A stretch of DNA of 64,000 nucleotides from Naegleria gruberi. Lineage: Eukaryota. Location of the stretch: NCBI GenBank assembly GCA_000004985.1, contig GG738845.1; one strand, written 5' to 3'. Shown in pieces: positions 3,727-57,703 of the stretch. A program made the position numbers and the translations under genes. Under the pieces are notes generated by a model, which made no database searches, was not told the origin of the DNA, and saw only the letters and a list, made by a program, of their open reading frames with translations. The stretch's first letter is position 1; each line of letters starts with the position of its first letter.

Positions 3727-3738
3727 TTTTGGCGCCAA
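3727..3738. promoter_or_regulatory. E2F-like element TTTTGGCGCCAA, about 75 bp upstream of the ATG at 3653
   Basis: A GC-only palindromic core GGCGCC flanked by T and A runs, sitting in an AT-rich intergenic stretch. It matches the E2F/DP consensus TTTSGCGCSAAA. Confidence 0.35.
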
Positions 3739-3798
3739 TTACTGAAGCATTTGTAATTCCGTCCACAAATTGTTGTGTTTTAACAAATTTACAACTTA

Positions 3799-6336
3799 CT
3801 ACCTAAATGATTTTATTGATCTATTTTTGGAGGAAGAATGGTAAAGAGTGGATCTTTGGGATAACGAATTTGTTCTTATGGAGATTGAGCCATCCAACAA
3901 TGCACTCAATGAAGGAGCTTTGTTCATATTTCTTTGATTGACTTGGGACTTAATAGAAGGAGATGAAAAGAGTATCGAATCACCTGATACTTTCTTTACT
4001 TTACCTCCACTATCTCTAAGAATATCAGCCATTACTTTTGAAGTTTCTTTCATTTCAACTTCGTTATTTGCATGATGAAGTGCCAATAATTTTTTGCAGG
4101 AACAAATGTGTTGATAAGCAAGAGGGTAGTTTTTCATTGTTGCGTAAACTATCGAAATATTTCTCTGACTAATTATTGTGTCAATATGATTTGTTCCAAA
4201 CAATCTTTCCCGAATAGATTTTGCATGGGTATAGAGTCGAAGTGCTTCAGTAATTTTCAATTCTCTTATTTTAGAATCATCTATTGAGGTTGATTTTTGC
4301 TGTAATATTTCTCTTACAAGTTTTTCATCCTTTTGATTATTTAAAAACGAAGTTAAATAGAGATGACCAAGGTTTGTATAAATAACAGCTGTAGCTTCGT
4401 GATCAAAGCCAAATGAGCTCTCAAAGATTGCTTTACATTTTTGATACTTTTCAAATGCTTCGATAATTTTACCTTGTTGTCTTAAAATATTTCCAATATT
4501 ATTTAAAACTGTGCCAGTAGAAGGGTGGTTATCTCCATAATACTGTTGTTTGTGTTTCAATACTCTGTAAAGCAGATCCATTGCTTCGTCTCCTTTCCCA
4601 AAATTAAGTAAAAGAGAGGATATATTTTCGAAAACAAGTATTGTTTCCGTGTGAGTATCTCCATAATGTTTCACATATATCTCCTTCGCCTTATTGTAAA
4701 ATGATAAAGCCTCCTCAAATTTTCCCATTTCCTGTCTCAGATTTCCTATGTACAAATAACCCACAGCTGTTTCAATATGGTCCTTACCGAATTCTATTTC
4801 TCTAAGCATGATTCCATGGTATAAATATTCATCTGCTTTTTCAAACTCTTGCATTGTAATATATAGGCTCCCTATCATTAGATAACAAGAAACTGTTGAC
4901 GAATGCCTTTCTCCAAGAATTCTTTCTCTTATGTTGAGAGCCTTTTCATAGAGTATTATCGCTTCCTCTGTCTGTTTCAAGCTTTTGAGACAAGTTGCCA
5001 AGTTCACCAAACTAGTTGCATAATCAGGATGGTCAATAAGAGAATTGCTTTCCAAAATACCTTCTCCCAGTCTATAATATTGGTAGGCCTTGTGATAATC
5101 TGCAACGTATAGAAATACATTTCCAATGTTATTGTAAACAGTGGCTGTTTCTAAATGATCCCTACCAAATATTTTCTCTCGAATTTCTAAAGCCTTACAA
5201 AGGCATTCCATAGAGTTTTCAAAAGATCCAACAAGACTATACACCACTCCAAGTTGTGTATAAGCAGTTGCGATCTCGTTCGTATTTACATGGTAATATT
5301 TTTGCTTTTCTAAAAGATGTTTTCTATAATACTCTATCGAGTGTTTGTACTTTCCTTGCAATTTCATTAGATAACCCAAATCATTGTAAATTTGTATTGA
5401 AAACAAGGCTAGAACTCTATTATTGTGCTTTGATTTGAATAAACCATCAACAATCTTCTTGGCCTCCAATAGGTACAACTTTGCTTGTTTGAATTTTGCA
5501 AGATGAGTCAATGATTCTCCCAAAAGAATAAAAATATAAATTAAATCCTCATTGAAACTACCTAAATGTTTCAATATCATTTGTTTGCATTCCAAAGCTT
5601 TTTCAACTGCATTCTCCAAAAATCCAGAATGAAGTAGCTCACAGGCAATTACCTTAGTTTGCTGTATCTCTCCCTTATCTATTGAGTTTGAAGGTGATAT
5701 GTTCTTTTTTAAAGACCTCTCATTTTGGAAGTTTTCTTTTACTCCGTTGAAAATAAAAGTGGTCTCTTTGAAGGGCGATAGGGCAGTGGATGGAGAAAAA
5801 TGGTTGGGAGAAGTTATCAAATTTTCACAAATCGAAATTGAAGTTGCCTTACTTAGTGGAGGAGGTGAGATGGACACTGTGATTGGCTTATCCTCAGTAA
5901 ATCCTTGCAAGAAGGGTGTATGGCCATTGCTGGGTGTATGTTCTTCGGAACTGATATGTTTCTTGTATTTCTCTACATCATCAGATAGATGTTTTCTGAA
6001 TGGTGTTGGAGTTTGTAAAGGAGGATAGATGTTCTTTCCGCAAGTTATTGGAGAGTTGTTGATTGTAAAGGGTGTGATGGGTTGTGGGGAAGACGGATTT
6101 TCTAATTCATTGTATGAGATATGAATAAAATTTGGATCACTTTCTTGTTGAATTTGTTTTACCCTTAATGCCCATGCCTCCTCTAATGATGTGTTTTGTC
6201 CTATATTTAGTGGTTGAGGGTGTGATTGTTTGGTTGATGAAAATATGTTGAAGGGGGAGAGGTTGTTGTTGAGATCCTTCTTTGGAGTTATTACTGGACG
6301 AGAGGGTGATAGAAAATTGGCATTCAAAATATTCAT
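3799..6336 (-). CDS. TPR-repeat protein with a Ser/Pro/Asn-rich N-terminal region. The C-terminal 550 aa are kinesin-light-chain/NPHP3-type TPR repeats.
   Basis: The start is a genuine ATG at 6336. The repeats have the form ...AxxYxxLGxxYxxxGxYxxAxxxYxxAL.I.E..(F/L)G..H..TA.. . This is the pattern of TPR_10/TPR_12 repeats as found in kinesin light chains and nephrocystin-3. No intron is needed. Confidence 0.65.
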   Translation of the reverse strand: MNILNANFLSPSRPVITPKKDLNNNLSPFNIFSSTKQSHPQPLNIGQNTSLEEAWALRVKQIQQESDPNFIHISYNELENPSSPQPITPFTINNSPITCGKNIYPPLQTPTPFRKHLSDDVEKYKKHISSEEHTPSNGHTPFLQGFTEDKPITVSISPPPLSKATSISICENLITSPNHFSPSTALSPFKETTFIFNGVKENFQNERSLKKNISPSNSIDKGEIQQTKVIACELLHSGFLENAVEKALECKQMILKHLGSFNEDLIYIFILLGESLTHLAKFKQAKLYLLEAKKIVDGLFKSKHNNRVLALFSIQIYNDLGYLMKLQGKYKHSIEYYRKHLLEKQKYYHVNTNEIATAYTQLGVVYSLVGSFENSMECLCKALEIREKIFGRDHLETATVYNNIGNVFLYVADYHKAYQYYRLGEGILESNSLIDHPDYATSLVNLATCLKSLKQTEEAIILYEKALNIRERILGERHSSTVSCYLMIGSLYITMQEFEKADEYLYHGIMLREIEFGKDHIETAVGYLYIGNLRQEMGKFEEALSFYNKAKEIYVKHYGDTHTETILVFENISSLLLNFGKGDEAMDLLYRVLKHKQQYYGDNHPSTGTVLNNIGNILRQQGKIIEAFEKYQKCKAIFESSFGFDHEATAVIYTNLGHLYLTSFLNNQKDEKLVREILQQKSTSIDDSKIRELKITEALRLYTHAKSIRERLFGTNHIDTIISQRNISIVYATMKNYPLAYQHICSCKKLLALHHANNEVEMKETSKVMADILRDSGGKVKKVSGDSILFSSPSIKSQVNQRNMNKAPSLSALLDGSISIRTNSLSQRSTLYHSSSKNRSIKSFR

Positions 6337-6450
6337 ATTATTGAAAAGACATTCCGTAAAGATGTGTTTTGATTTTTTTTAAAAACGTTCACCACACCTC
6401 ATTCAATTAATGAATAACGGTGCTTTTGGGAGGGAAAAGTCGTTTTGACG

Positions 6451-6460
6451 TTGGCGCCAA
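6451..6460. promoter_or_regulatory. E2F-like palindrome TTGGCGCCAA in a 152-bp divergent promoter between genes 3799-6336(-) and 6489-8183(+)
   Basis: The element lies 29 bp upstream of the ATG at 6489. It has the same core as the elements at 3731 and 20386. Confidence 0.35.
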
Positions 6461-6488
6461 GAAATTTCTTCTACAACTATTTAAAAAA

Positions 6489-8183
6489 ATGAGTGAACCA
6501 TCATCTATAGACAATCAAGAGGAAGGTTTGGAAAATGCAACTCCGTCACCTCTGCCAGAAGGTGCCGAAGAGGAAACAACACAAGGATCACCAACACCTC
6601 AAAATGAGGAAGGAAATTCTCCTGGTAATACTGACAACGGAGAGGAACCAGAAGATGACGAGGCAGGGTTTAGGCCATATGATCCTAATGGATCATTAAC
6701 TGGAGGAGTGAATGAATCTATTGTACAACAAACATTAAATGATGCAGCAAATGTTATTCAGGATGTTGAGGTATTAAGAGAGGAAGAAAATAGACAAAAA
6801 AGAGAGGAGCACCTAAGGCAACGAATTAGAGAATTGAAAGAAGAGGAACAATCATATTCAAAAATTAATATGACAAATATCAATGCGAATTGGTTATATT
6901 TAATGAGAGAAAGCAAACTAAAGGAGTTAAAAGACTCAATTCAAATCCAAGCTCAAGACCACGACCGATTGGTTGATAGAAAAAATGCAACCATCCAATT
7001 AATGTACAGAGAATTAGACGAGTCTGAAGAGCAATACAGATCTGCTTTGAGGACTCATATGCAACACATAGAGGAACTTCTTCAATTACAAGATCAAAGG
7101 TTGACAATATTGCATCAAGAGTTTAACAATGATCTGTATCTATTAAAAAAGGAATATGAAGAGGAAACGCAAGAATTAAGACAAAAACACAAGCAGGAAA
7201 TGCAAGAATGGGAGGAAATAACAAAAGAAATGGAAAAGAGGGAAGAAAAAACCAACGAAACAATGGAACTCGATTTTGCTCAAACAAAGGAAAAGATAAA
7301 AAATAGATATCAGGAAGAATTGATCCAAATGGTTGGTAATATGAATGACAAGATTGAGGAGTATAGAAAAATTACAAAGCAGGAAAACAACGACCACTAC
7401 GAATCAATGAATCAAAAATATAAGGATTATATTATTTTAAGAGAAAGAGATAGTAGTTACATTGAAATTATCAAAACTCAGACTTATCAAATTAAAATGA
7501 AGGAAGAGGCCCTTGCCCATTGGAAAGCTAAATGGTTAAACAATTTAAGAGAATGTGAAGAAAGAAATAATAAGCTCATTAAAGAAAAAGACCAACTTGC
7601 TCAACACTTTAAAGAATTGAAAAAGAAAATGAATTCATTCAGAGAATCAGAGAAGAAGAGGTTAACAGAACTTGTCAAAATGAGTACAGAAACAAAAGAA
7701 GCTCTTAAAGAAAAGCTCGAAAAAGCTTCAAGAATACTCAAATTGTCGGAAGTCAATAGGAGATACGAAACGGAAAGAGAGAGATTACTTCCTTTCGAAA
7801 GTGATATGGAAAACCATGTTGGTTTAGTTTCAGTCGCAGAGTCATCCATTGAGGAGTCTAATGTCGATGTTGATGAAAAGAACTTTTCTGAATCTGAGTG
7901 GCAACAACTGAATAGATTTTACAAAAGATACAATAAGGTGTTGCTGGATAATCTTGCCCTTGATCAAGAGAAGGAGCACCTGGTTGACCAAAACAAAAAG
8001 CTCAGAGACATGCTTAAACAATATCTTGATGGTATTTCAGTTAATGAAGATGTCCTTAACAATAGAAACCCTCTGTTGATTGTGGACCCTCTCACAAAGG
8101 GTAAGTCTGCCAATGAGGATAAACATATGGTTGTTGTTACATCTGATAACGGTGGTGGGGAAAAGGTAAAGGTTTCCAATTAA
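6489..8183 (+). CDS. Coiled-coil flagellar protein, like a nexin-dynein regulatory complex subunit (DRC1/DRC2, the CCDC164/CCDC65 family)
   Basis: The genuine ATG is at 6489; the ORF-track start at 6420 is a GTG. The product has an acidic N-terminus followed by a long coiled coil. It contains MYRELDESEEQYRSALRTHMQHIEELLQLQDQRL and, near the C-terminus, LKQYLDGISVNEDVL...NPLL. As I recall them, these resemble the NYD-SP28 and sperm-tail domains of DRC1/DRC2. Confidence 0.45.
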   Translation: MSEPSSIDNQEEGLENATPSPLPEGAEEETTQGSPTPQNEEGNSPGNTDNGEEPEDDEAGFRPYDPNGSLTGGVNESIVQQTLNDAANVIQDVEVLREEENRQKREEHLRQRIRELKEEEQSYSKINMTNINANWLYLMRESKLKELKDSIQIQAQDHDRLVDRKNATIQLMYRELDESEEQYRSALRTHMQHIEELLQLQDQRLTILHQEFNNDLYLLKKEYEEETQELRQKHKQEMQEWEEITKEMEKREEKTNETMELDFAQTKEKIKNRYQEELIQMVGNMNDKIEEYRKITKQENNDHYESMNQKYKDYIILRERDSSYIEIIKTQTYQIKMKEEALAHWKAKWLNNLRECEERNNKLIKEKDQLAQHFKELKKKMNSFRESEKKRLTELVKMSTETKEALKEKLEKASRILKLSEVNRRYETERERLLPFESDMENHVGLVSVAESSIEESNVDVDEKNFSESEWQQLNRFYKRYNKVLLDNLALDQEKEHLVDQNKKLRDMLKQYLDGISVNEDVLNNRNPLLIVDPLTKGKSANEDKHMVVVTSDNGGGEKVKVSN

Positions 8184-8216
8184 CAGAATTCTTCCATAAA
8201 GCTATAGTTTCGACAA

Positions 8217-9991
8217 TTAGTTATCATCTTTATTCTGGATAGAATAGTCATCTCTATCCACAATCTTCATCCAACTTACACAATCCAATAAAAACTTTGT
8301 ACAAATAACGGTATGACCAGTTTCTCGTTCAACTTTAGCAGCATTTTCAATGGTAATTTCATTGTCACCAATGACAATATTATCATATTTTGATTTCCTT
8401 TGTGGTTTTTTAAAAGCAGTTTGAGAAACTGTTCCACCACCAAACTCTACTAGTTCAGTTAACTCTTTCTTTGTTGGATTTTTTGCCTTGGGATCAAATT
8501 TTCCCATAAAATAGAACCTGTAACCTGAAAATAATCTAGTATCTCCATTTGCCAATCTCTCTCTTGCTACTTTGCAAGAATCATATTTTACATTTGAATC
8601 TCCAAGAGCACAATATTCCAGTTCGTCAATATGAGAATTAGAGCTAATTACTTTTTCAATCCAATCAACTCCTACAATCCACACTCCAGATACTACTCCT
8701 ATACAATATTTAATAGTTCTTCGTGAATATCTATTATCATCCAAAGTGGTTATGAGATGAGTTACCTCGTGAGTAAATTCTGTAACTACATCAGCCCCAA
8801 GAACTTTTGCAGCCAAATCTAGCTTCTTCTTTGTGTCTCCATTAAGATTAGAGCCAATTAAACAAAGTTTTTTGAGTTTAGATCTCGATATTCTTTTCCT
8901 GCCAGTGGTGCTGGAACTTGTTTGAGAGTTTGTTTGCTGAGAAATGGCCGTGCTTACACTTGGTGGAACCAGCTCAGAAGGTTGGAAATTACTGGTAAAC
9001 GTTGTTAAGAAGGGAAACTTTTCATTCGAAAACCCAAACACACCATATATATCACTCAAATCAGATAGTAAATCCTCAATTTGTGATAACTTGAGTCTTT
9101 TAGCGCTCAAGTCAGAATCCACTTTTGATAATGCCTCCTTTGATCTACTGCCAGAACTAGCATCAATTATTGCTGTTGTTGAAGAATCTGAAATATTTCC
9201 ATCCTGCTCTGATGAAGAGGAAGGTTTACTTCTTGTAAACTTTCTCTTTCTGGTTAATGTTGTAGAAGTGGAGCTGCTTCCATAAATGTTATTAGTATTT
9301 GATTTTCGATTTGGTTGGGTAGGTTTTGGTGTTTTAAACTCGATATTATTTGCGGCAAGTTTGGTTGGATCGGGATACATTGAGCATAATTCTTCATATG
9401 TGTTTCCAGTTGTTGAATTTGGGATGTTATCAGAAACTACTTGTCGTTTTGGAGAAGATGGTTGTAATTCTATTGTTTGATTGAATTTCTTCTTCAATGA
9501 ATGAAATGCCTCAATCAGATTGGCAAGAGATTGCATAGGCATTAAATCTCTCTTGGATAGGATTGGTGTTTTACATAGAGGACACTCTTTCTTAGTCTTC
9601 ATACCCTCTTCAATACATTCATAACAGTAAATGTGACTGCAATGGGTGGCTGTTGGTTCTGTCCATACATCCATACTATGAATTCAAGTAGTTAGTTTAT
9701 AGTTGAAGGAAATTTTGATGTGAATTAAAATTTTAATTAGAAAATCCAATTATCAATCTTAACCTACCAAATAGCACAGCGTAATTCACTTTCAAAGGCA
9801 TCAAAATCCCTATTGGTTAATGGAAACGGTTGAAACTCTGTACTATTTTTGTTTGGAGGGGTTGGAAAACTATCAGATGGTGGCATTGAATGTTCATCAT
9901 CAGCAAAATCCAATCTCATAGAATCCGAAGTTTTGGAATTTTCTATTGGAGAAACTTTTTGATCCGACGATGAGGTTTTTCGTCTAGGCAT
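8217..9991 (-). CDS. BRCA1-like protein with an N-terminal C3HC4 RING finger and C-terminal tandem BRCT domains. Exons 9991-9768 and 9675-8217.
   Basis: ORF 8217-9674 has a half RING (HCSHIYCYEC...CPLCKTPI) and two BRCT repeats with W...C/S motifs (WIVGVDWIEKV, LDCVSWMKIV). The upstream ORF 9764-9991 starts at a genuine ATG and ends ...ESELRCAI. It joins through a 92-bp intron (GTAGGT..TTCATAG, 9676-9767) in phase 2. The junction creates CAIC, completing C-x2-C-x11-C-x-H-x3-C-x2-C-x10-C-x2-C. The completed RING resembles the human BRCA1 RING [45 protein letters not shown]. Confidence 0.75.
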
Positions 9992-10156: not shown

Positions 10157-11899
10157 ATGCTTCGTTCTGTCGTTAAAGGTGCTTCACATTGTTTGTCAAA
10201 TAAGAATTCATCATCTTTGCTGGTTAGTCAAAGATTGTTGAGATCATCACAACAACATTATTCCACCGGACCAACATTCCAATATGAAGATCTCTTCCAA
10301 GTTGGAAAAGATGGAACTGAATATAGGTTAGTCAGCAAGGATCACATTTCCACCATCTCTGTTAAAGATGAAAAAAGTGGTGAAACCAAGGAAATTTTAA
10401 AAGTTGAACCAGAAGCCCTTTCAAAGATCACACAAGCTGCCATTTCTGATATTCAATATCTTTTACGTCCAGCCCACTTAAAACAACTTTCAAATATTTT
10501 GAAGGATCCAGAGGCTTCCCAAAATGATAGATTTGTAGCCATGACTCTTTTGAAAAATGCAGTTATTGCATCTGGAAGAAAACTTCCTGGTTGTCAAGAC
10601 ACCGGTACTGCTATTGTTATGGGCAAGAAGGGACAATTTGTTTGGACTGATGGAAAGGATGAAAAACATATTTCAGAAGGTGTTTTCAATACATACACCA
10701 AGCAATATTTGCGTTATTCTCAAGTTGCTCCATTAAATATGTACGAGGAAAAGAACACTGCTTGTAACTTGCCAGCTCAAATTGATTTATATGCCACTGA
10801 TGGTGATGAATACAAGTTTTTATTTATTGCTAAAGGTGGAGGTAGTGCCAATAAGACTTATCTTTACCAACAAACAAAGGCATTGTTGAACCCTGCCTCA
10901 CTAATGAAATTCTTGGAAGAAAAAATCAAATCAATTGGTACATCTGCCTGTCCACCATATCACTTGGCTATTGTCATTGGTGGTTTGAGTGCTGAACTCA
11001 CTCTTAAAACTGTCAAATTGGCCAGCACCAAATATTATGATGAATTGCCAACATCTGGTAGTCCAGGTGGTAGAGCTTTCCGTGATGTTGAATTGGAAAA
11101 GGAAATTTTAAAACTGACTCAAAAAATGGGTATTGGTGCTCAATTTGGCGGTAAATATTTCTGTCATGATATTAGAGTTATTCGTTTGCCACGTCATGGT
11201 GCTTCCTGCCCTGTTGGTATTGGTGTCTCTTGTTCTGCTGATAGACAAGTAAAAGGAAAAATTACCAAGGATGGTATCTATTTGGAAAGATTAGAAACTG
11301 ATCCAGCCCAATACCTCCCAGAAGTAAAAGAAAAAGATTTGAGTGAACAAGTTGTCAAGATTGACTTGAATAGACCAATGAAGGATATTTTGAGTGTTCT
11401 GAGCAAATACCCAATCAAGACAAGACTTTCATTGTCTGGTCCATTAATAGTTGCTCGTGATATTGCCCATGCTAAATTGAAGGAAAGACTTGATAGAGGA
11501 GAAGGTTTGCCAGATTATGTCAAAAATCATATTATTTATTATGCTGGTCCAGCCAAGACTCCTGAAGGATATGCCTCAGGTTCTTTCGGTCCAACCACTG
11601 CAGGTAGAATGGACTCATATGTAGACCTCTTCCAAAAGAATGGTGGTAGTTTAATCACTTTGGCTAAGGGTAACAGATCTCGTGAAGTCACTAAAGCTTG
11701 TTCTGAAAATGGTGGCTTCTATTTGGGATCTATTGGTGGTCCAGCTGCTATCTTGGCTGCTAATAACATCAAGAAGGTTGAAGTTGTTGAATATGCTGAG
11801 TTAGGTATGGAAGCTATCTGGAAGATTGAAGTTGAAGATTTCCCTGCATTCATTATTGTTGATGACAAGGGTGCTGACTTTTTCAAGGATTTGAACTAA
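10157..11899 (+). CDS. Class I fumarate hydratase (Fe-S dependent, FumA/FumB type, fused alpha and beta domains) with an N-terminal mitochondrial-type presequence
   Basis: The ATG at 10157 follows AAAAAAA. The 580-aa product has the class I fumarase N-terminal catalytic domain and a C-terminal beta domain (...[11 protein letters not shown]..., ...[14 protein letters not shown]..., ...[26 protein letters not shown]...). The presequence is Arg/Ser-rich ([36 protein letters not shown]). Confidence 0.9.
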
Positions 11900-11961
11900 A
11901 TTTTCCCACCAATTTTCTTTCCTATTGCGTGTTTTTTAGAAATAAAACTATTGTTTTAGTG

Positions 11962-12307: not shown

Positions 12308-12320
12308 TTTTCCCGCCAAT
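12308..12320. promoter_or_regulatory. E2F-like element TTTTCCCGCCAAT, 33 bp upstream of the CDC16 ATG
   Basis: A TTTCCCGCC core sits in an AT-rich 80-bp intergenic region. Confidence 0.35.
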
Positions 12321-12352: not shown

Positions 12353-14313
12353 ATGCAACAATTACCAACAACACCTAGTTTTATTCTGGACTCGATAAAG
12401 AAGAAAGTAGAGTTTTTTATGGATCAACAGGAATATAGGAATGCCATATTTCATGCAGATAAATTATATCATTTAACTTTTCAAAATAAGAGAGATTGGA
12501 GTGTAAACAAAATTGAAAATTATTCCGATAAAGAACACGAAGCAATCTACTTGTTGGCTAAATCTTTCTATGGATCGGGGCAATACAAGAGAGCTTTACA
12601 TTTACTTACATCATCATTTGTAAATTTTTCTCAAACAGCACCAATGGACTGTTTCTTTTTGGCTGCTAAATGTTTGGAAAGATGTGACGATTGGTTGGAA
12701 ATTCTGAGCTTATTAGGCGACAATGATAATGAATTTGAACAAATCTTGGCAAGAAATGGATCTGAAAAGGTTGGTATTTCATTTTTATTACGTAACTACA
12801 ACTTGTAAAGTTTATTGCCAGTTTGTGTTTTTTAAGAGCCAAATCATTTGACATGATTGATAACAAACAGAGAGCAATTACATGGTATTCAAAGACTCTT
12901 GTTAATGACCCAAATTTTTATGAAGCATTTGAGAAATTAGTTGAAAAGAATTTATTGACAAACGCAAGTCAAGTATCACTTTTAAATCAAATTAATTTTT
13001 CCCAAGAGGATCAGTGGGTTAAATACTTTTATGAAACAAAAATTGATAGATATAGCTTTGTTATTGAAAATAGTAAGACTGCTCTTAAAAAATTGAGCGT
13101 GGAATATAACTTGTCTAAAAATCATGATGTAAGATGCAGTGAAGCAGAAAGGCACTTTTATTCCCAAAGATTCAATCAAGCTTATGACATTACCAAGCAA
13201 ATTATTGAAGAAGATCCATACAATCAGACGTGTTTACCAATTCATATTCTTACTTTGATTGAACTCAATAAGAAAAGTGAATTATTTTCACTTTCACACA
13301 AATTAGTTGATGATTATAAGGAATCGGCTGTTTCTTGGTTTGCCGTAGCTTGTTACTATTACAGCATTAAAAAATTCGCATCAGCACGGTCTTACTTTAC
13401 GTAAGTATATTCTCATAAGAAGGGTATTGATTGTAAACTCTTGTTACAAAAACTAAATTGAACAACTAGAAAGGCAACTAATCAAAATCCTCACTTTTTG
13501 GAAGCTTGGTTAGGCATTGGACATTGTTTTTCTGGTGATGTAAGTACAAGCAAATACCCTTTGTAAATAATTAAACTTTTCAAAAAGAATGAACCAGATC
13601 AAGCAATGGCAGCTTATAGAACAGCTTATAGATTGTTTACTGGAAGTCATTTACCGCCTCTGTATATTGGGATGGAACATATGAAAATTAACAATCTTAC
13701 ACTAGCTCAAAAATTTATTGAGCAAGCCCTAACAATATGTCCAACAGATCCCCTAGTACATAACGAGTTGGGTATGATTTGCTACAAGTGGAAGCTCTAT
13801 GATGAGGCCAAAAAACATTTTGAGAAAGCCTTACGACTTAATCCAAGAAAAGATGATTACTCGAGTAGTGAAGGAGTTATTACAAACCAATACTCATCAC
13901 ATTTTGTAGATAATGATAATAACCTAGTTGTTCAAATGTGGGAACCCATCCTTTTCAATTTGGCCAATACTTATAGAAAATTGAAACAATATGAACCAGC
14001 ATTAATCAATTACAAAAAGTGTCTGAGTTTACAACCAAAAAATGCCTCAATATACTCTGCTATTGGTCAAACATACCATTTACAACAATACAGTGGCAGC
14101 TCCAATTTACACACAGCTATAGAGTACTACCACAAGGCGCTTGCCCTTCAGCCAGATCATTCATTTACAGCAACAATGCTAAGTAAGGCACTAATTCAAA
14201 TATCCAGTCAATCACTGGAATATTTATTACAAGTTGAAGAACTGAGTGATGAAATGCAATACTCAATAGAGGAAGATGAAAATGCAAAACTCAATCAAGT
14301 TGTTCATCATTAA
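12353..14313 (+). CDS. CDC16: Anaphase-promoting complex subunit 6 (CDC16/APC6). Exons at about 12353-12804, about 12822-13400, 13470-13539 and 13588-14313.
   Basis: Three ORF-track fragments (12353-12808, 12823-13404, 13606-14313) plus a 23-codon exon all match human CDC16 block by block. Examples are LDSIKKKVEFFMDQQEYRNAIFHADKLYHL, CLPIHILTLIELNKKSELFSLSHKLVDDYKESAVSWFAVACYY, HLPPLYIGMEHMKINNLTLAQKF and WEPILFNLANTYRKLKQYEPALINYKKCLSLQPKNASIYSAIG. The introns 13401-13469 (GTAAGT..CTAG) and 13540-13587 (GTAAGT..AAAG) restore the frame. The first junction, near 12800-12837, is anomalous; see the findings. Confidence 0.85.
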
Positions 14314-16047: not shown

Positions 16048-16407
16048 TTTTTTCAACGAAGAAATTTTATTGGATCACCATCTTGAATCAATTCTATCCG
16101 ATTATTCAACGTTCTTTGAGAGTATTATTAAGGTCTTTTATGTTTTAGGATGAATTATTTTGTGCTGAGGTGATTTCAAAATAAAGAGAAACAAAATAAT
16201 TAATATGACAATTAATTGGAATAAGCTGAAATATTTGGTATTTCGAAAAAAATTACAAAAAAATTAAAAATAAATTAAAAAAAAACCCTACAGCATTTAT
16301 CACTCCTTCAGTCAGTGGTGTTTGTTGTTCAACTGATCAAAAACATCGCGCCTTGTACAAACTTCAAAAAATTATTTATTTATCATTATTATCTGTCGGA
16401 AAAAGGA

Positions 16408-20382: not shown

Positions 20383-20383
20383 A

Positions 20384-20395
20384 TTTGGCGCCAAA
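20384..20395. promoter_or_regulatory. Perfect palindromic E2F consensus TTTGGCGCCAAA, 55 bp upstream of the ATG at 20451
   Basis: This is the textbook optimal E2F/DP site, sitting in a 68-bp intergenic spacer. Confidence 0.45.
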
Positions 20396-20450
20396 TTTTA
20401 AAAATAAAACAGTTACGCTTGTTTAAAAGCAATAAAAAAAGCAAAAAAAA

Positions 20451-24476: not shown

Positions 24477-24615
24477 ATGAATAAACTTCTATTATTTGAA
24501 AGTACATACTCTTCAGTTGGGTGATGAACCAACCAGCAACACAAAGAAGATTTAGATTTTCCTCCATTGTTTATCAGTATGGATTGTGAAGCCATTTTTT
24601 TTGAATTATTTTTTA

Positions 24616-24626
24616 AAATTGGCGGG
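24616..24626. promoter_or_regulatory. E2F-like element AAATTGGCGGG in a divergent promoter between the genes starting at 24476/24594(-) and 24830(+)
   Basis: A GC-only core GGCGGG in an AT-rich spacer. The classic E2F site has the form TTTGGCGGGAAA. Confidence 0.3.
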
Positions 24627-42926: not shown

Positions 42927-42938
42927 TTTGGCGCAAAT
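42927..42938. promoter_or_regulatory. E2F-like element TTTTGGCGCAAA, about 480 bp upstream of the Myb ATG. The 10-bp palindrome AACGGCCGTT follows at 42948-42957.
   Basis: GC-only cores sit in an AT-rich 960-bp intergenic region. Confidence 0.3.
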
Positions 42939-43343
42939 TTTTTTTAACGGCCGTTACAATAACGTTCATTTTTTCAAATGCTTGTTGTATCTAACACAGA
43001 GAAAATATCAACGCTAGTCATTTCTTCCTAATCACCTCTGTAGTATTAAACAAAGTTCTTGAAAAATAAGAATTAGATCCTCTTCACAATTCTGCCTCTT
43101 TATCTAACCATTCCTTCCCTAATTGACAACTGTTGTGTGGGGGTTATACTCTTCTTTTTTCGTCTTGAGCAGAATAAACTTTTTGAACAGCAAGCATAAT
43201 ACTATAATTGCTTGCAAATTAATGCTGAAGCCAATGGTGATATTTTAATTCCATCGCATGATGTGTTTCACATGCATATCATTATTATGTTTTTTTTTGT
43301 GGATTTTCTTGCAACATTTTTTAATTTCTTATTGAAACGATTA

Positions 43344-43358
43344 TTTTTCGCGCCAAAA
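43344..43358. promoter_or_regulatory. E2F consensus-like element TTTTTCGCGCCAAAA, about 900 bp upstream of Myb and 60 bp downstream of the HD-domain gene's stop
   Basis: It matches TTTSGCGCSAAA. Confidence 0.3.
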
Positions 43359-43417
43359 CGGTCAGTTATGTCTCGACAATTGATTATTCCAAATTCGTTG
43401 TTTCATGAAGTGATAAT

Positions 43418-48705: not shown

Positions 48706-48713
48706 TTTGGCGC
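48706..48713. promoter_or_regulatory. E2F-like element TTTGGCGC, 30 bp upstream of the ATG at 48676
   Basis: A GC-only core within an A/T run (AAAATTTGGCGCTTTTTTT). Confidence 0.3.
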
Positions 48714-48927: not shown

Positions 48928-51900
48928 TTAAACAATTGTCTTTCTAATAATTCTTCCATCTCCACCAGATGTATAGAAAAATTGAGTGCTTATCTCAGAC
49001 CATGTAACACCTTCTTGAGTGAAAAGTTTCTTCTTTGGGTGAGTGTCTGGATAAAAGTATAATTGTTTCTTTAAATTCTTCATATCCCAAACAGTTATGT
49101 GACCATTGGAGCAACCAGTAACAAAGAAATCTTCTGTAACATCAATATTTAAAACTTGAATACTGTCATGTTGAGTGGAGGTCTTTTGTAAAAAACCATA
49201 ACTTCCATCTTCTGCATCAAAGATGTAAATATCTCCCTTCTTGGTACCAACAAGTAATAGTTTATACTTGTAAGAATAGCGAAGGGCAATTGGTTCATCA
49301 TTGTTAGGGAATAAGTAATAGAACATTTTAGCATCTTGATTTGGCAAGAATAAATCCCAAATACACAATTCGCCTCCCTTTTGTGATTGTCCAATAGTTG
49401 CAATCAAACTGCCTGACTCTAAAAATGAAAAATCATTTACCTTAGTGCCATGACAATGTAAATGATAAAAGTAATGTAGACTTTCCTTGGATGCTTCAAA
49501 TCTCCATAATGTAAGATAACCTGATGTATCTGTGACACCAAATTTGTATCCAAATCTGGAGAAACGAATGTTAGTAATTGGTGATGTACCAGGTTCTCTA
49601 TAAGTTCTCAAAGCATATTGGAATCCATATTGCCACATGAATACAGAACCATCTGCACCTCCAGATATATAGAAAGGTAAAAATGGATGAGATACTAAAA
49701 CGTTGGCTGTTTGATTTCTGTCAATTTTTCCAACTTTTTTGACTGGTTGTTTAGATGGAGGAACATTTGATTGTCTTCTAAAATGAGATGCAGATGGAGT
49801 TGTAGTCGTGAAGGAAGGTCTTTTACCAACAGAAAATCTTTGTTTAAGCTTGTTCATATAAGAATTGCTTGAATCGACAGAAGACATTGGATTGGAGAAA
49901 CCAATAAACTTTTTCAAATTCTTGTTGGACATGGCTTCATCATCATTTACCGTATCTAGGAAGTCAAAAACGTTAAAGTTTGAAATGCTTGGAACTTTAG
50001 CAATAGAAGAGGACTGCTGTACAAACTTGGTATTATTTACATCCTTGGCAGCAATTTCATCAAATCGGTGGAATGATTGATCCCAAGTATTGGCTTCCTC
50101 ATCTAAAAGTTTGTCAAGTGAAGGATTTCTCTTTCTGTATCTAATAGAATGTTCAATATTAATCTCTCTAATACATTTGCCAGATGCATATGCCAAATAG
50201 CTTGGGTTATTGGAGTCTACACAGAAAGATTTGATCAATTCTTTACATTTGACAATTTCAATATCTGCAGAGAATTTCAAAACTTCATCTGATTCTGTCT
50301 TTGAGAAGTCGGAGGAAGTTTCGGTAGTGTTCTCACCACTAGCAAATTTTGCTAGACTACTATTGACGCTTACGGAACTGCTAATATTTGGTTTTGGTTT
50401 AGATGATAAATCCATCAAGTAGCTCCATAATTGTTGGGAAGTTGGATCAGACTTGAAAGTATCGAAAATCTTTTCATCCTCTAACCAATGATCACTAATA
50501 CAAGACAAGAGAAGATTTTGTTGTCCTCCAACTTGTTCCAATCCCAACTCTGGTAGAGCATGTGCCAATGAGTGGAAATGATCCTTTGACGATTGAGTAC
50601 GTTGATGCATTTTCTTTGATCCATGAGAAAGGGTTTCTACCATGCTTGATAAATTATTTCTTGTTGAGAGTGCGTTTACATCTTTCAAATTAGGAGCCCC
50701 ATGCTCAGAGACAGTGTATACTTCCATTTCTCTATATTGAAGTCGTCTTTCTAAATGGGAGCACCACAATGCAGAACATGAAAGAGCAGTTTGTGCACAG
50801 AGTGAATATTGTTGCTTATTGATATCATCCCTCTTCTTTTGGGATTGTTTGACAAATCCAGAGTAGGTTTCATCATAGGCATGTTCAATAAAATCCTTTA
50901 GAGTTGTTGTAAACTTGAACACTACAAATGCATCAAACATTTCCCAATGAAATTGCTTTTCAATTCTTTCAACATCCTCGTTTCTATCACTTCCAGATTT
51001 TGTGGTCTTGTTGTGATAGTTTTCGAGAAGATTTTTGTAATAGTCTTTCTTCTTCTCAGCTTCTTCTTTGTTAATGATCAAACCGGATGTCTTATTGACA
51101 GGAGCTTTTTTCTTTCTTTTCTCTTCTTGGTCAATTTCCTCTTGCATTGCCTTGTTTATCTTATTATCCAACATCTTTTTCTTGAATTTTTTGTGGAACA
51201 TGGCCATTCTATCGAAAAGTAAATGATAAAACTTGTCAAATACTTCTTTTCCTTCAAAGCTTGGACGAGAGGACAACGAATCTCTTTCCTTTTTATCAAA
51301 ATCTTGATGAAGAGTAAAAAGTGTGAAAAGCCCCTCAAAATCACGGTTAAAGTATAAAATTACAAACATCATTGTCTATTCAAGTTAAAAATGATCTATG
51401 TTTTTTTCAAAATACTTACTAAAAGAGTTGATGAGAGATCTGATTGTTGGTGTTCGGTAATGATTACCTTATTGCTCTTCATTCTACTGTAACAATGGAC
51501 ATATTCCTTTAGTAATCCTTCTAAAACGTTAACTTGTGATTTTCTTAATTGATTCTTGATTACAAGAGAAAGTGTGTTTTCAACTTGATAAACAAAAGAT
51601 TCCAAAATTCTAAGAATTGAACTTGGCTTGGAGCAAAGTAAACACCTTGCTGCTAATAATCCATTGACTCTTGTGAACACTTTGAGCTTTTTGATTAGCA
51701 TTTGTTTGTCAATATCCAATTTTTCAACAAGCTCATCAATATCTGTCATTATCTTCTTATGATTCTTGTCCCAGTCACTGTGGTAATTTGAATTGGTACG
51801 ATAACAACAATCATAAAGTTCTTGAGAAATGATTGTGAGGGCTGTTTTGAATTTGAGAAGTTCAGTAAGATCAGTTTGTTCTTTAGCATCCTCAATGGAA

Positions 51901-54900
51901 ATAGTGGAAGAGTTCAATTGCTGTTGTTTAGTGTTACCCATTCCCATACCACTCATTCCACCAAACCCACTCAAAGTTCCACTTGCAAGATTTCCTGATG
52001 TGCCTGATCCTCTCATGGAGTTACTCATTCCCATATTGTTCATTCCACCAAATCCACTCAGAGTTCCACTAGATAGATTTCCAGAAGCCATGGAATTACC
52101 CATTCCCATACTGCCCATACCAAACCCACTTAAAGTTCCACTTGCAAGATTGCCCGAGTTAATGGAAGAAGTCTTACTCATTGAATTACCCATTCCCATA
52201 CCACTCATTCCACCAAATCCACTTAAAGTTCCACTAGACAAATTTCCAGAAGCCATGGAATTACTCATTCCCATACCACTCATTCCACCAAATCCACCCA
52301 AGGTACCGCTAGATAAGTTGCCAGATGTCATAGAGCTATTCATACCCATTCCCATACTACTCATTCCGCCAAACCCTCCCAAAGTTCCACTTGTCAAATT
52401 TCCTGAAGTACTAGGTGTAGTTTTAGGTGTCCCAAAGGCTCCCATATTGATTTGACCAGACATTAAATCATTTTGTCCAGTTGAAGTATTCAACTTTCTT
52501 TTAGAAGTATATTGTTCCATATTTTTAAGTTTCAATAAATGTTCTAAACAAAGTGTGTAAAGTCCAACTTGGCTATAATAATGAGCAGTTCTTAATAATA
52601 TTGGAAGAGCATGCTTTGCAACAAGATCTGATGAATTCAAGTGTGGCTTGGAATCTACCTTAATACAGAATGCAAAAAGAGAAGGATCAAAAGCTTCATT
52701 CTCCTCTCCTCTCTTGATGAGTGTTTCAATGGATGTTTCATACTTTTTCAGTGTCCACAAAATAACACCTTGCATCCATACATCCTTGCTTTCAGTGTAT
52801 CGTTGATAGAGTTCATTTTCCAACATGTTCTTACAGAAATTACTATCATCACCACAATATAGACGAGCAATGAAGAAAGCTAAATCGTATTCTTTGGCGC
52901 TTTTGATGAGAATACTGATAGCGTCTTTAGGATTATCAGCAAGTAAAAAATATGCGGCAGCATAGTAATAATCCTGTCTACTAAGTAAAGTATAGGCATT
53001 CTTAGATGCTGCTACTCTACATTTTTCATCTGTGAAATCCTTATTTAAGAATTCAGCAACCTTCTCATTACCTTTGAGTTTGAAAAGTCTAGCCAATGCT
53101 CCTTTCTTCTTAATAGCCATATAATACAAAGCACATTTGGTAGGATCATTTGTTTCCTTATAAATTTCTGTTGCAAGTCGTTCAGCAACCTTTCTCAAAG
53201 AATTATTATTCATCCAGTAACAAACACCCAACTGTTCTACAAGTTTCCAACAAATATCCTCTTCTTCTGGGCAAATCATACGCCATAATGAATCCTGTGT
53301 TTCAGAAAGTAAAGCCCAAGCTATCATTGAACTGTTTACCTTTTCTATTAATAAATTATCATGCTCCGTTGATGATTTTGAAGAATCCCTCATTTCGGGT
53401 TTTCTTTTATCGTATAGAAACTGTAAATACTTGACTGTCACAAGATATCTGATACCAGCTGGATCTAAGGCTTCAGGATTTCTTTGAAGCTCAATAAAAG
53501 TGTCAACTACAGCCTGTAAGTTCATTTGCTCTATCTTTGAAATGCCAGGTAAGTGAATACTACTTTTAGAAAGGAGAGAGTTTAAATAATGGACATCGGA
53601 ATAAATGTTAATTTCTTCTTCTTCAGTTTCTGTCGGGGTTTCCTTCTTTTGGTTTTCTTCTTTGGCTATTTCTTCGTCAATATTTGTGAACTTGTCAAGG
53701 AGTGTTCTTCTCTTTTGTACAACAGGTTCTGTCTTCTTTGATTCTTCCTTTAAGAGAGAGGTCACTTTAATTGATGGAATTTCCAATAGGTGAGAATAGT
53801 CCTTGTCCTTATTTAGATATTCTTCAATTTTATCATTCTTCTTCTTTTCAACCAAATCTTCATAAATCTTCAAATGCTTAACTAAATGATGTATAATTGT
53901 CTTGATTATACTAAATCTTCCATCCATAAGTAATTCTAAAAGGAAATTTGGGTGATAGTCTACTAGTCTTCTGTGCGTAAGTAAGGATTCTGTATTAAGA
54001 GTTGGTTCAGATGCCAATTTGAAAAGAGACATTAGAGCAAGAGAATCATCATTTTGTTGAGTCTTTGTGTACACATGCAAAGATGAACCAAAAGAGGCGA
54101 TAATAGCCTTATCCTTTGTAACTGTAATTTTGGAACATGGATGACCTTTAACTGAAGGCATAAATTGTGTAACCTTTTTCCAGTATTGTTTTTGTTGTTT
54201 GATTATTCCTGGAGGTATCTTTGATTGAGTGTAGTACAATATCTTGGAATCTGTTCCAATACAAATAACAAACTGACCGTCTCCATAGCTCAACCATTCA
54301 AAATCGTGCACGAAATCACTCTCTGTATTGATAGATTGTTCTAATGTGTATGTTACATGGGATTCATTTTCCCAAATTTTTACACAACTTGAGGAAGAGG
54401 TTGTAGTAGCAATTCTAGAAACCAATTCACAGCACCTAACAGTAGTAATTGGTTCTTTTTCGGCTCTAAACTCGAACCACTTTTGTAATATGAGTTTTTC
54501 CTCATCTGTATTAATACTGGCTGTAGAAGAGCTAGAATTGGAAGTAGTGGCGGTAAATTTTCCAAGAAGACCACCAATCTTTGGTTTCGGAGGCTCTTTG
54601 ACTTCATTTTCCTGTTTTTTCAATCTTATTACAGAGACAGTACCATCCTTATTACCCAGAGTAATAACTACCACTCTTTGATTAGAAAAATACTTCTTAA
54701 TACTGGATTCATTTGATAAAGCTGTCTTACTCTCTACAGTAAAATGTTTTAAAGTTGTATATAAAATTAAATGACTTACTATGAATATCATACACAAAAG
54801 GAACTCCTTTTACACAGTCTGCACTGCAAACGATCTTTTCAAGATTTTGTTTGATAAGGGTTTTACATTCGAATTGATTTACATCATTTTGCTTTGCCTC

Positions 54901-56968
54901 AACTTGGAAAATGCCAATGGTTTTACAATTCGAAGCAATAGCAACTACCAATGCTCCAATTGAGGAGGTTTTTTCTGGACTAGTAGGAGATGTTCCAAAA
55001 GGCAAAACTTTGAGGAACATACAATCAGAAAAATCTTCTGAATTTGGAAGAATAAAATTCAATGAATGAATATTATAGTAAGAAGGTGAAGGTGGAAATA
55101 TTGTAGATTCATAGATGCTAGAGAGGTTGTGAGTGAGAGGGTTGACTGATTTTACGTGAATGACTTCAATACCTTTGTTTGTTGAGCAAAACAAATGAGG
55201 AGAAGTAGGAAACCATGAAATATTTGTTGCATTAATTTGAAAATCTTGAATATTGGTCAAAACATCTTTAGGGCTATAAAATGGTGTATCTCTTATATGC
55301 CATGCTACAAGATGGTTATTATCCTTATCTAATGATGCCATTATTGGTAGACTTGGGTGGCATTCCATATTTTTAACATCTCCAATATGTCCTGTAAATA
55401 CATTAAGTAATTCTAATTGAGGACGTTTAGCCAAGTTTAACTCCCAACTAGATAACATTCCATTTCTACTTTGTACATAGATTGTTAAAATTTTTGGAGT
55501 TGTAGAACCCAAATCAAGATTTGAATCATCAGCTGTTTTGTAAACCATTGATACATTTAATGGATCTTCAATACCTTTTAATGCATTAGGCATCTTTATC
55601 CACATGGAAGTTTTTGGAGTTCTTCTTGGAAAATCGGCCAATCCTTGTAATAAATCAATCATTAATGTACCATCAGATTGAACTGTTCCTAACCATGTTT
55701 GTGATTCGAATAGACCTGTATCAGAACTTGCTTTTTGAAGTTTAGTCTCCAAACTGATCTTTGTCTCACTCTCTAAAATTATATCCTTGTGATCACCTTC
55801 ATAAGACTTCTTTCTTTTTTTTCTGAGGTATTGTAGAAGTAGCTCATTTGGGCTCCTCTCATTAGCTGTATTTAACCATTGCACATTGGAAGGAGTTTCC
55901 TTTTCAATGATAGAACAAACATAAAATGACAAGTCTTCATTCTCGTTTGTTTCACTCCATACACGTACCACATTGTCAATAGATGTTGTCAATAAAACAT
56001 TAGCTGTAAATTCATCTCTTTGTTGTGATTGTATATCCTTAAATCTCCATGAGATGGAAGTAACTGAACGAGGATGAGGTAAATAAATGTAGGAAAAACT
56101 TTCTTCTTCATCATCCTCAATAGTTTGTGAAGTAGATTTTGGATCTACAATAGTAATTACTGGAGTAAATAATGATACTCTGACTTGAGGTTTGTTTCTA
56201 TACCAAACCTTTACAAGACGATCAAACTTGGACACTGTTGCAAAATATTTTTCATCTGGTGAATATGCAACTAAGTAAATTGGAGTTGGATTGTCATATT
56301 TCCAAACCATATTCCATTTCTAAACTATATTATAAATTTCTAAACATAAAGAAACATACATAAACTTGATTTCCTAGAATAGGTTTTCCTTCAAAAATCA
56401 TTGTAGTTTTTCCACCAACAATTAGTCTATCACCATAAAAATTCCAATCCATGCATTCGAATTCATCTGTTGAGTTAATAACCTGTTCAACAATCCAAGA
56501 AGGGCTCTTTTTCAAGGCACCATTGTCAACCTCATCTTCAACTGGAGAATAAATAACAATTTTTCCTCTTGAGCAAGCAGCAATTCTTCCATGAAGATTA
56601 CTCCATTTTACGCTGGTAATAGTTTCATCATGACCATCCAATAATTGAACAAAACTATTTCCACAATAAACCATAACATGTCTTCCGCTTGCAAAAGCAA
56701 TCACTTCATCACCCATAAATGTTGACCATGTAAAAGCTTGAGGATAGGGATTAATAGAACCAGGACAAACCTGCCAAGCATTAATCCCTTTTGATCTGTT
56801 GATACTTGGTGTTGTCTGTTGTTCCGTTGCATTGGATCCTAATATATTTAAACCGTTTGAGAAGATATTTCCTCCAAACGATGATGAAGAACCAGCAGGT
56901 GTAGAGGGAGTACTTTTTGGTGTATTAACCAAAGGAGTAGTGGTTCCGCTCGAAACACCGTTAAACAT
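48928..56968 (-). CDS. Giant protein of about 2,630 aa with WD40 propellers at both ends and a central Rav1p_C-like region, like rabconnectin-3alpha/DMXL/Rav1 (V-ATPase RAVE complex). Four exons: 56968-56360, 56319-54780, 54733-51420, 51375-48928.
   Basis: Four ORF-track pieces join in frame through introns 56320-56359 (GTATGT..TTTAG), 54734-54779 (GTAAGT..CTGTAG) and 51376-51419 (GTAAGT..GAATAG). The central block reads ...AAAYFLLADNPKDAISILIKSAKEYDLAFFIARLYCGDD.... This resembles the Rav1p_C signature (AA.FLL.G...DA..VC...L.D.QLA..IARLYEG). The C-terminal and N-terminal regions are WD repeats. Confidence 0.55.
51930..52440 (-). repeat. In-frame tandem repeat inside the DMXL-like gene. There are about 7 copies of a unit of about 75 nt, encoding SGNL(A/S)SGTLSGFGGMSGMGMGNSM(A/T).
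   Basis: The repeat is visible directly in both the DNA and the protein (...SGNLTSGTLGGFGGMSSMGMGMNSSMTSGNLSSGTLGGFGGMSGMGMSNSMASGNLSSGTLSGFGGMSGMGMGNSMSKT...). Its antisense reading gives the spurious proline-rich ORF 51829-52455. Confidence 0.8.
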
Positions 56969-57113
56969 TTTTTTTAAATAGATTTTTTAATACGTAAATC
57001 TAAAATAGGTTTATTAATTTAATAAATACCTAATTATTTTTTATTTATTTATTAAAAATATTTTTCGTCACCTTTTGCAAAGTAGATGTAATTTTAACGA
57101 AATAATTTACATT

Positions 57114-57668
57114 TTATTCTAAAACCATTTTTTCTTCATTTTCCTTTTGTTCCTTACTTCCATTATATACAAGTCTATCAAAGGAGCCAAATATTTTTTC
57201 CTTATCAGGAATATCAAGGTTTGTTAGGATGGCAGGTATCTTTGACATTATTTTTGGAAGTTTGGGTATTGGATTTTCTTTTGTTAGTTCATCACTCGAC
57301 AAACAATGTGCAAATATACAACAATTTTCATCCTTTACATTTTTTTGAACAAAAGTCTTGTACCAAAATTCCAATTCCTTTACATGATTAATGTTTGAAG
57401 GATTATACACTATAATACATCCGTTCATGTCCTTCATTATTGCAGGCCAACAATTTTCGAAATTTCGATCTCCAGAAATATCCCAAAGTTCTACCGACAC
57501 CTTTTCCATTGATTGCATCTCTCTATCACATTCGCAAATTCTTAGACCCATAGTTGGTCTGTATTCATTTGAAAATTCCTTATATCCACTAAGAAAATTA
57601 CAAATAGCACTCTTGCCACTCTTTTTTGGTCCAACAACAATAAGTTTTACAGTTTGTGAGTCACTCAT
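57114..57668 (-). CDS. IFT22: Intraflagellar transport protein 22 (IFT22/RABL5), an atypical Rab-like small GTPase
   Basis: The match to human IFT22 is close: ILFVGPCESGKTVLANFL / ELWDCGGDAKFESCWPALMKDAHGVVIVFN / EMWYSCFVQQ in human against LIVVGPKKSGKSAICNFL / ELWDISGDRNFENCWPAIMKDMNGCIIVYN / EFWYKTFVQK here. The start is a genuine ATG. Confidence 0.75.
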   Translation of the reverse strand: MSDSQTVKLIVVGPKKSGKSAICNFLSGYKEFSNEYRPTMGLRICECDREMQSMEKVSVELWDISGDRNFENCWPAIMKDMNGCIIVYNPSNINHVKELEFWYKTFVQKNVKDENCCIFAHCLSSDELTKENPIPKLPKIMSKIPAILTNLDIPDKEKIFGSFDRLVYNGSKEQKENEEKMVLE

Positions 57669-57683
57669 TTTTTTTGTAGTTTT

Positions 57684-57703
57684 ATTGGCACTCTCCCGCC
57701 AAT
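57684..57703. promoter_or_regulatory. Inverted CCAAT pair with an embedded E2F-like core (ATTGGCACTCTCCCGCCAAT), 16-35 bp upstream of the IFT22 ATG. It sits in a divergent promoter shared with the gene at 57909(+).
   Basis: ATTGG ... CCAAT form an inverted repeat. TCCCGCCAA resembles TTTCCCGCC-type E2F sites. Confidence 0.3.

Follow-up and report, generated by a model that had tools for sequence, protein, structure and literature searches.

E2F-type promoter elements upstream of cell-cycle and flagellar genes in Naegleria gruberi

Do the short GC-rich words that stand out in the AT-rich intergenic spacers of Naegleria gruberi belong to a conserved cell-cycle promoter code, and does such a code reach flagellar genes as well? 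The question is raised by a 64-kb stretch of contig GG738845.1 from N. gruberi NEG-M (hereafter the window, meaning the whole stretch analysed), in which an earlier note, made from the letters alone, had listed ten GC-cored elements resembling E2F sites, several of them next to cell-cycle genes and two next to flagellar ones. We located all ten in the sequence. Nine share a 10-bp motif, TTGGCG[CG][CG]AA, which is enriched in non-coding DNA, lies close to start codons and recurs at orthologous promoters in related species, and the genome encodes E2F-family factors. The elements are probably functional promoter-proximal sites for such factors (E2F-DP and/or DEL), with binding inferred from these features. 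For the cell-cycle genes this would be the expected conservation of an ancient system; for the flagellar genes it would be unexpected.

A GC-cored word concentrated in promoter DNA

The window has a GC content of 33.8%, in line with the earlier by-eye estimate of one-third. Against this background the hexamer GGCGCC occurs three times, as first reported, each time within TTGGCGCCAA and once as the perfect E2F palindrome TTTGGCGCCAAA. Since composition predicts ~1.5 copies, the hexamer count by itself is unremarkable; the longer words and their placement are remarkable, and the original claim of non-randomness holds for these and not for the hexamer. Relative to 100 dinucleotide shuffles, TTGGCGCCAA was observed 3 times against 0.00 expected, TTTSSCGC 9 times against 1.28 and TTGGCGS 16 times against 2.33. 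A provisional mask of open reading frames (ORFs) leaves 13.9% of the window (8.9 kb) as non-coding, and this portion contains 8 of the 9 TTTSSCGC matches, 12 of the 16 TTGGCGS matches and all 13 SSCGCS matches, with TTGGCGS ~18x denser than in coding DNA. When an order-2 Markov model is fitted to this non-coding DNA, 0.6 TTGGCGS are expected and none of 1000 simulations exceeds 5; the real count is 12. Because look-alikes also occur in coding sequence (at 1803, 11145, 52366 and 52893), the description of the elements as confined to promoters was slightly overstated.

The motif can also be discovered without prior knowledge of the E2F consensus: when all 6-, 7- and 8-mers of the non-coding DNA are ranked, CGCCAA (13 observed vs 1.0 expected), GCGCCAA (9 vs 0.15) and GGCGCCAA (6 vs 0.023) come directly after poly-A. 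A logo built from the nine sites that share TTGGCGS reads TTGGCG[CG][CG]AA, with no information beyond those positions, and in gene orientation the CGCCAA half generally faces the gene. Both the logo and the exact TTTSSCGC matches fit the E2F consensus TTTSSCGC / TTTSGCGCSAAA. The element at 16345, ATCGCGCC, fits the GC core only and lacks the TTGG/CCAA flank common to the other nine, making it the weakest and a doubtful member. GC-only tetramers are depleted window-wide (GCGC 16 and CGCG 10 in 64 kb, vs ~52 expected by base composition), so that GC-cored sites stand out further. Separately, CAACAA/ACAACAA is over-represented in non-coding DNA (25 vs 5.9 expected).

Several other identities for the word were considered and rejected. 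Likeness between sites does not reach their flanks (identity mean 30%, maximum 43%, with 30% being the level for unrelated AT-rich DNA), so the motif does not come from a dispersed repeat or mobile-element fragment, an origin that the earlier note had named as fatal to its proposal. A CCAAT/NF-Y reading fails because CCAAT is present in only 4 of the 10 sites (those at 3729, 24617 and 57694 and that of the anaphase-promoting complex (APC/C) subunit), while the other six read CCAAG, CCAAA or GCAAA, or contain no CCAA. An NFI site, TTGGC(N5)GCCAA, is rejected because the half-sites in TTGGCGCCAA abut without a spacer. Non-coding RNA genes beneath the sites are ruled out, as Rfam and tRNA scans of the entire window gave zero matches.

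When short first exons are taken into account, eight of the ten sites fall 22-84 bp before a start codon, as measured to the ATG and not to the transcription start, and for these eight the 30-100 bp given originally holds. The remaining two, upstream of the gene for an R1R2R3 Myb, lie at -472 and -890, close to the 480 and 900 bp reported, inside a 960-bp ORF-free spacer (42455-43417). This spacer is of exceptional length for the genome and holds neither a convincing ORF nor any match in the Rfam and tRNA scans. An unannotated transcript would be one explanation of it, a long 5' leader or untranslated exon another. Seven of the originally assigned coordinates were right and three were one base off (GGCGCC is at 20387, not 20386; AATTGGCGGG is at 24617 and TTTTGGCGCAAA at 42926).

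The genes with a proximal site are those for the APC/C subunit, borealin, Ctf4, INTS3 (weak), one protein without assigned function, the dynein regulatory complex subunit DRC2, the intraflagellar transport (IFT) protein IFT22 and the IFT motor subunit WDR34. Every flagellar gene in the window (DRC2, IFT22 and WDR34) thus has one (3/3). A proximal site is found at 6 of 8 recognisable cell-cycle or flagellar genes versus 1 of 22 others (Fisher P = 3e-4, window), the functional classes being small, with 5 cell-cycle and 3 flagellar genes. No site was found in the window at the genes for fumarase, the aminotransferase, RAVE and the RING-BRCT protein, nor at the remaining genes (NUBP1, Rpc34, a DEAH helicase, a cis-prenyltransferase, an HD-domain protein, a GTPase, a cytochrome-P450-reductase-like protein, BLOC1S2 and further WD40 genes). 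The earlier identification of Ctf4, the R1R2R3 Myb, DRC2 (then called DRC-like) and IFT22 was confirmed. The gene called CDC16 does encode an APC/C TPR subunit, although CDC16 itself was not specifically confirmed; the protein noted for its D-box and KEN box is borealin; and the two flagellar genes were both right, with a third, WDR34, missed.

Conservation at orthologous promoters

We collected Ctf4, DRC2 and WDR34 orthologues from N. lovaniensis, N. fowleri, a metagenomic Naegleria, Willaertia magna and Acrasis kona, whose proteins are 40-80% identical to those of N. gruberi. Sites recur among the Naegleria and Willaertia relatives at the Ctf4, borealin, DRC2 and WDR34 promoters (2-5 species per promoter), and the DNA around them is not conserved. 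All five Naegleria/Willaertia sequences have the DRC2 element, which lies at -25 to -46 and takes the forms TTGGCGCCAA, TTTGGCGCCAAAA, TTGCGCGCCAAAA, TTTTGGCGCCAAAA and ATTGGCGCCAAA; in a MAFFT alignment of the five species, T[TG][GC]GCGCCAA is the sole conserved block apart from an A-run and the ATG. As the upstream neighbour of DRC2 varies between species, the element belongs to DRC2. At Ctf4, the promoters of N. lovaniensis and N. fowleri each contain CCGCCAAAA and a second CCGCC, and that of Willaertia contains TTTTTCCCGCC and CCGCGCCAAG, the sole TTSSCGC matches of the 23-kb locus. The borealin promoter of N. lovaniensis has TTTCCCGCGC at -55, the same place as the N. gruberi GC core, where N. 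fowleri has CCGCC, and WDR34 is preceded by TTTTTGGCGCCAAAAA at ~-48 in Willaertia and by GCGCGCC at -33 in the metagenomic Naegleria. The two flagellar genes tested across species, DRC2 and WDR34, thus keep the site as far as Willaertia.

Across ~167 kb of non-gruberi loci there are ~14 distinct TTGGCGS, 7 of which fall within 100-bp windows upstream of orthologous targets, and a site is found at ~1-2 of ~64 non-target neighbour genes in the other species. This distribution argues that the sites are under selection and gene-specific. Together with the enrichment in the window, the conservation at orthologous promoters supports the conserved E2F-type promoter code that the earlier note had suggested.

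Further words accompany some of the sites. Of 7 Ctf4 and borealin promoters, 6 have a CHR-like TTCAAA/TTTGAA hexamer no more than 20 bp from the site, at variable spacing, with few at other sites and a background of 3.5 per kb; such hexamers are found in Ctf4 promoters of 4 of 4 species and borealin promoters of 2 of 3 (window 24596-24616; L002 9950-10000; L003 9770-9810; L005 9960-9985). At borealin, the interval from the site to the ATG contains a Myb-type CCGTTA/CAGTTA in N. gruberi (20400-20450), N. lovaniensis (L002 14428-14480) and N. fowleri (L003 14369-14440). Upstream of the Myb gene, TAACGGCCGTTA at 42945-42956 is a palindrome of two Myb/MSA-type YAACGG words, 8 bp from the site at 42926-42937. 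TAACGG is ~5x denser in non-coding than in coding DNA of the window, and its co-occurrence with the E2F-type site near DRC2 is not kept in the DRC2 orthologues. These CHR-like and Myb-type words fit an arrangement of E2F, Myb and CHR elements, the numbers being small and the spacing variable.

Three further features were seen at these loci. In four Naegleria species the site and the ATG of DRC2 are separated by a stretch containing CTACAA (6470-6478 in the window; L006, L007 and L012), as they are at IFT22 (57672-57680); the word may be a start-site or leader element. In W. magna, the next gene downstream of DRC2 (L008 11578-12552) encodes a protein with a Pfam XAP5 domain. Elsewhere in W. magna (L005 19985-20010), a TTSSCGS match sits inside the tRNA T-arm-like sequence GGGAATCGAACCCG, a resemblance that makes it probably part of a tRNA gene and not a promoter site.

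Gene content and gene starts of the window

Gene density in the window is very high and introns are short. Genes were identified by Pfam and PDB searches of the window proteins (Table 1). Two ORFs have identical public counterparts on a 1.56-Mb scaffold: that of fumarase is an exact match to XP_002683156.1 and that of NUBP1 to XP_002683161.1. Short first exons behind short introns precede several long ORFs (Ctf4, WDR34, the 928-3654 gene and the RING-BRCT gene). The true Ctf4 ATG is at 24595, with N. fowleri keeping this exon, and the true WDR34 ATG is at 48676, where N. fowleri protein P0045 starts with identical residues. Public N. gruberi models of DRC2 (NAEGRDRAFT_1424, 435 aa) and WDR34 (400 aa) are flagged partial. 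No Pfam or PDB match was obtained for the near-site genes 928-3654, 24830-25501 and 57909-58652, nor for several others, and no exact N. gruberi gene model matched the WD40 protein at the right edge. A 50-N assembly gap (59833-59882) lies inside the cytochrome-P450-reductase-like gene. A 4.7-kb metagenome contig (ENA ERZ929261) encodes the fumarase and RING-BRCT proteins of the window exactly, from which it follows that N. gruberi or a near-identical strain was present in, or contaminated, that sample.

Table 1. Elements, genes and first exons in the window
Feature	Position	Strand	Details
TTGGCGCCAA, palindrome	3729..3738		-75 to -84 from ATG 3654 of the gene without assigned function
TTGGCGCCAA, palindrome	6451..6460		29-38 bp upstream of DRC2 ATG 6489; 115 bp from divergent TPR gene
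TTTCCCGCCAAT	12309..12320	+	33-44 bp upstream of APC/C TPR subunit ATG
ATCGCGCC	16345..16352		56-63 bp upstream of INTS3 ATG
TTTGGCGCCAAA, perfect palindrome	20384..20395		56-67 bp upstream of borealin ATG 20451
CCCGCCAATT (gene orientation)	24617..24626	-	22-31 bp upstream of Ctf4 ATG
TTTTGGCGCAAA	42926..42937		472 bp upstream of Myb ORF ATG
TTTTTCGCGCCAAAA	43344..43358		890 bp upstream of Myb ORF ATG; 60 bp downstream of HD-domain gene stop
GCGCCAAA (gene orientation)	48706..48713	-	30-37 bp upstream of WDR34 ATG
TCCCGCCAAT	57694..57703	+	26-35 bp upstream of IFT22 ATG 57668 (minus-strand gene)
Gene without assigned function	928-3654		870 aa; ATG 3654
TPR protein	3799-6336	-	divergent from DRC2
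DRC2, dynein regulatory complex subunit 2	6489-8183	+	flagellar; E 1e-71 to DRC2 of 7ju4 axoneme structure
RING-BRCT protein	8217-9674	-	BRCA1-like
Fumarase	10157-11899	+	
APC/C TPR subunit	12353-14313	+	CDC16/CDC27 family; intron-split
Aminotransferase	14362-16047	-	
INTS3	16408-20382	+	
Borealin	20451-21275	+	
Ctf4/WDHD1/Mcl1	21294-24595	-	upstream first exon included
R1R2R3 Myb	40181-42454	-	three Myb repeats in ORF 40181-41893; upstream ORF/exon 41987-42454
WDR34, cytoplasmic dynein-2 intermediate chain 2	47023-48676	-	IFT motor subunit; first exon included; E 2e-44
RAVE/Rav1	51396-56968	-	
IFT22/RabL5	57114-57668	-	E 1.3e-23
First-exon region of 928-3654 gene	3538-3654		
First-exon region of RING-BRCT gene	9675-9990		
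First-exon region of Ctf4	24477-24595		
First-exon region of WDR34	48346-48676		

Candidate factors, alternatives and known systems

The homologues whose existence the earlier note had made a test of its proposal are on record, the sequences of NgruE2F, NgruDP, NgruDEL and NgruRB having been given by Medina et al. 2016 (PMC4862756). Pfam confirms the domains of the first three: NgruE2F has E2F_TDP and CC-MB domains, NgruDP has E2F_TDP and DP domains, and NgruDEL has two E2F_TDP domains, like E2F7/8. The DNA-binding domain of NgruE2F aligns closely with its counterpart in human E2F4, as seen bound to DNA in 1CF7 (E 7e-25), with RRIYD intact. E2F-DP prefers TTTSGCGCSAAA and E2F7/8 prefers TTCCCGCCAAAA. 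The forms in the window match TTTGGCGCCAAA, TTTCGCGCCAAA and TTCCCGCCAAAA, which we take to be the palindromic E2F consensus, the DHFR promoter site and the E2F7/8 motif, respectively. As E2F-DP-type and E2F7/8-type forms are both present and interchange at orthologous promoters, E2F-family binding is the most economical reading. Our literature search on Naegleria with E2F, promoter motifs or MuvB found nothing specific, and it found no described promoter elements of this kind for Naegleria or other heteroloboseans.

In the mechanism that we propose, a winged-helix E2F-DP heterodimer and/or the two-domain, E2F7/8-like DEL would read the 10-bp GC-cored TTGGCG[CG][CG]AA in its AT-rich spacer, usually 20-85 bp upstream of the start codon, a position that probably coincides with the transcription start or slightly precedes it. 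If animals and plants are a guide, activation of these promoters would fall to E2F-DP and repression to RB-bound E2F or DEL, which would tie transcription of Ctf4, borealin, the APC/C subunit and Myb3R to the cell cycle. Because the same element sits on DRC2, IFT22 and WDR34, it is probably also an input to the flagellar programme, acting through repression in cycling amoebae or activation at differentiation. In a stronger form, the statement would be that in Naegleria and related organisms both cell-cycle genes and structural flagellar and IFT genes (DRC2, IFT22 and the dynein-2 intermediate chain) are under the direct control of an E2F-family factor acting via TTGGCGSSAA. This form draws on three flagellar genes, and we offer it tentatively, as a possibility that we would not yet back at even odds.

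Several points weigh against an E2F assignment. A site is lacking at the BRCA1-like RING-BRCT gene, which would be a plausible E2F target, and both Myb sites are unusually distant from the ATG. Among the relatives, the only element upstream of Acrasis DRC2 is CGGCGG, at -65, and borealin in N. fowleri retains no more than a weaker, degenerate CCGCC. Cell-cycle and flagellar genes are expected to be oppositely regulated when amoebae stop dividing and differentiate, so that one shared factor requires extra assumptions. Genome-wide enrichment is extrapolated from a sample of one 64-kb window plus ~167 kb of orthologous loci, and the factor is assigned from sequence.

The best-surviving alternative accepts a real, conserved cis-regulatory site and gives it to a different factor, such as a lineage-specific dimer recognising the GGCGCC palindrome, with the likeness to E2F sites being coincidental. 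The identity of the binding protein is itself deduced, the flagellar-gene sites are mostly GGCGCC/GCGCGCC palindromes, flagellar genes are not classical E2F targets and four sites contain CCAAT, all of which would suit such a factor. However, CCAAT is missing from 6 of the 10 sites, the match to the E2F consensus spans 10 positions with the T and A flanks included, palindromic and CCCGCC forms swap at one orthologous promoter (borealin, Ctf4) as a single E2F-type specificity would allow, and E2F, DP and DEL are encoded with intact recognition helices. We therefore regard a different factor as unlikely, while giving it real weight. Considerably less probable is a general role at a subset of promoters, either in the core promoter or in positioning the start site, with no link to cell-cycle or flagellar programmes: the narrow placement very close to the ATG (-22 to -84) and the sites at INTS3, Willaertia Spt20 and the gene without assigned function would agree with it, but the base rate is low (1 of 22 unrelated window genes and ~1-2 of 64 elsewhere, against 6 of 8 cell-cycle or flagellar genes) and housekeeping genes such as fumarase, NUBP1, Rpc34, DEAH helicase, prenyltransferase and RAVE have no site. 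Chance, a compositional artefact or a dispersed-repeat fragment, for which the non-significant GGCGCC count (3 vs ~1.5 expected) could be cited, is a negligible prospect, already refuted by the shuffle and Markov controls, by the unrelated flanks (30% identity), by sites kept at orthologous promoters in up to five species and by a window with no Rfam or tRNA match.

E2F, DP and RB are inferred to have existed in the last common ancestor of eukaryotes, and E2F-type DNA sites are documented mostly in animals, plants and a few other groups. If E2F-family factors read the sites described here, the same word under selection in a heterolobosean would extend the cis-regulatory side of E2F conservation to Discoba, and the motif would provide a ready handle on cell-cycle transcription in Naegleria, the pathogen N. 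fowleri included. According to a 2025 review (PMC12183034), Naegleria lacks RFX, FOXJ1 and XAP5, and its cilia-gene regulators are unknown because these are absent. The motif makes this question directly testable: should the flagellar association hold genome-wide, the element would be a concrete candidate for cilia-gene regulation, recalling the vertebrate E2F4/5 programme. If an E2F-family factor does control flagellar genes, it would be a candidate for the missing switch of amoeba-to-flagellate differentiation in a lineage without those three regulators, and the link between E2F and ciliogenesis seen in vertebrate multiciliated cells would be ancient or would have arisen more than once.

The closest comparison is with the canonical G1/S E2F-DP sites of animals and plants (TTTSSCGC; TTTCGCGCCAAA in DHFR), which the Naegleria consensus matches, T/A flanks included. 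The promoters are alike in having promoter-proximal sites, replication and mitosis genes among those that carry them, a B-Myb-like R1R2R3 Myb and encoded E2F, DP and RB. They differ in that Naegleria is a heterolobosean (Discoba) whose sites are known from sequence alone, and in that its spacers are extremely short and AT-rich, making the site nearly the sole GC-rich word of the promoter. The E2F7/E2F8/DEL motif TTCCCGCCAAAA is fitted by TTTTCCCGCCAAT at the APC/C subunit, CCCGCCAATT at Ctf4 and TCCCGCCAAT at IFT22, and N. gruberi DEL likewise has two E2F_TDP domains. Atypical E2Fs are repressors in animals and plants; judged by sequence, either DEL or E2F-DP could use the Naegleria sites.

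The nearby CHR-like and Myb-type words recall the DREAM/MuvB CDE-CHR arrangement of animals and the E2F plus MSA/Myb3R arrangement of plants, and the Myb-type element at borealin is reminiscent of MSA elements in plants or of promoters targeted by Myb-MuvB in animals. CDE-CHR spacing is fixed at 4 nt, whereas the spacing of the CHR-like words in Naegleria is variable, in tiny samples.

For the flagellar genes, the relevant parallel is the vertebrate multiciliated-cell programme, in which E2F4/5-DP1 acts with MCIDAS/GEMC1 and E2F-family sites are likewise linked to basal bodies and cilia. Like multiciliated cells, Naegleria makes basal bodies and flagella de novo after cell-cycle exit. MCIDAS and GEMC1 are vertebrate proteins. 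The main targets of E2F4/5 in vertebrates are centriole-amplification genes and upstream regulators, and structural cilia genes are driven by RFX and FOXJ1. In Naegleria, by contrast, the sites lie directly on structural and IFT genes: DRC2, IFT22 and WDR34.

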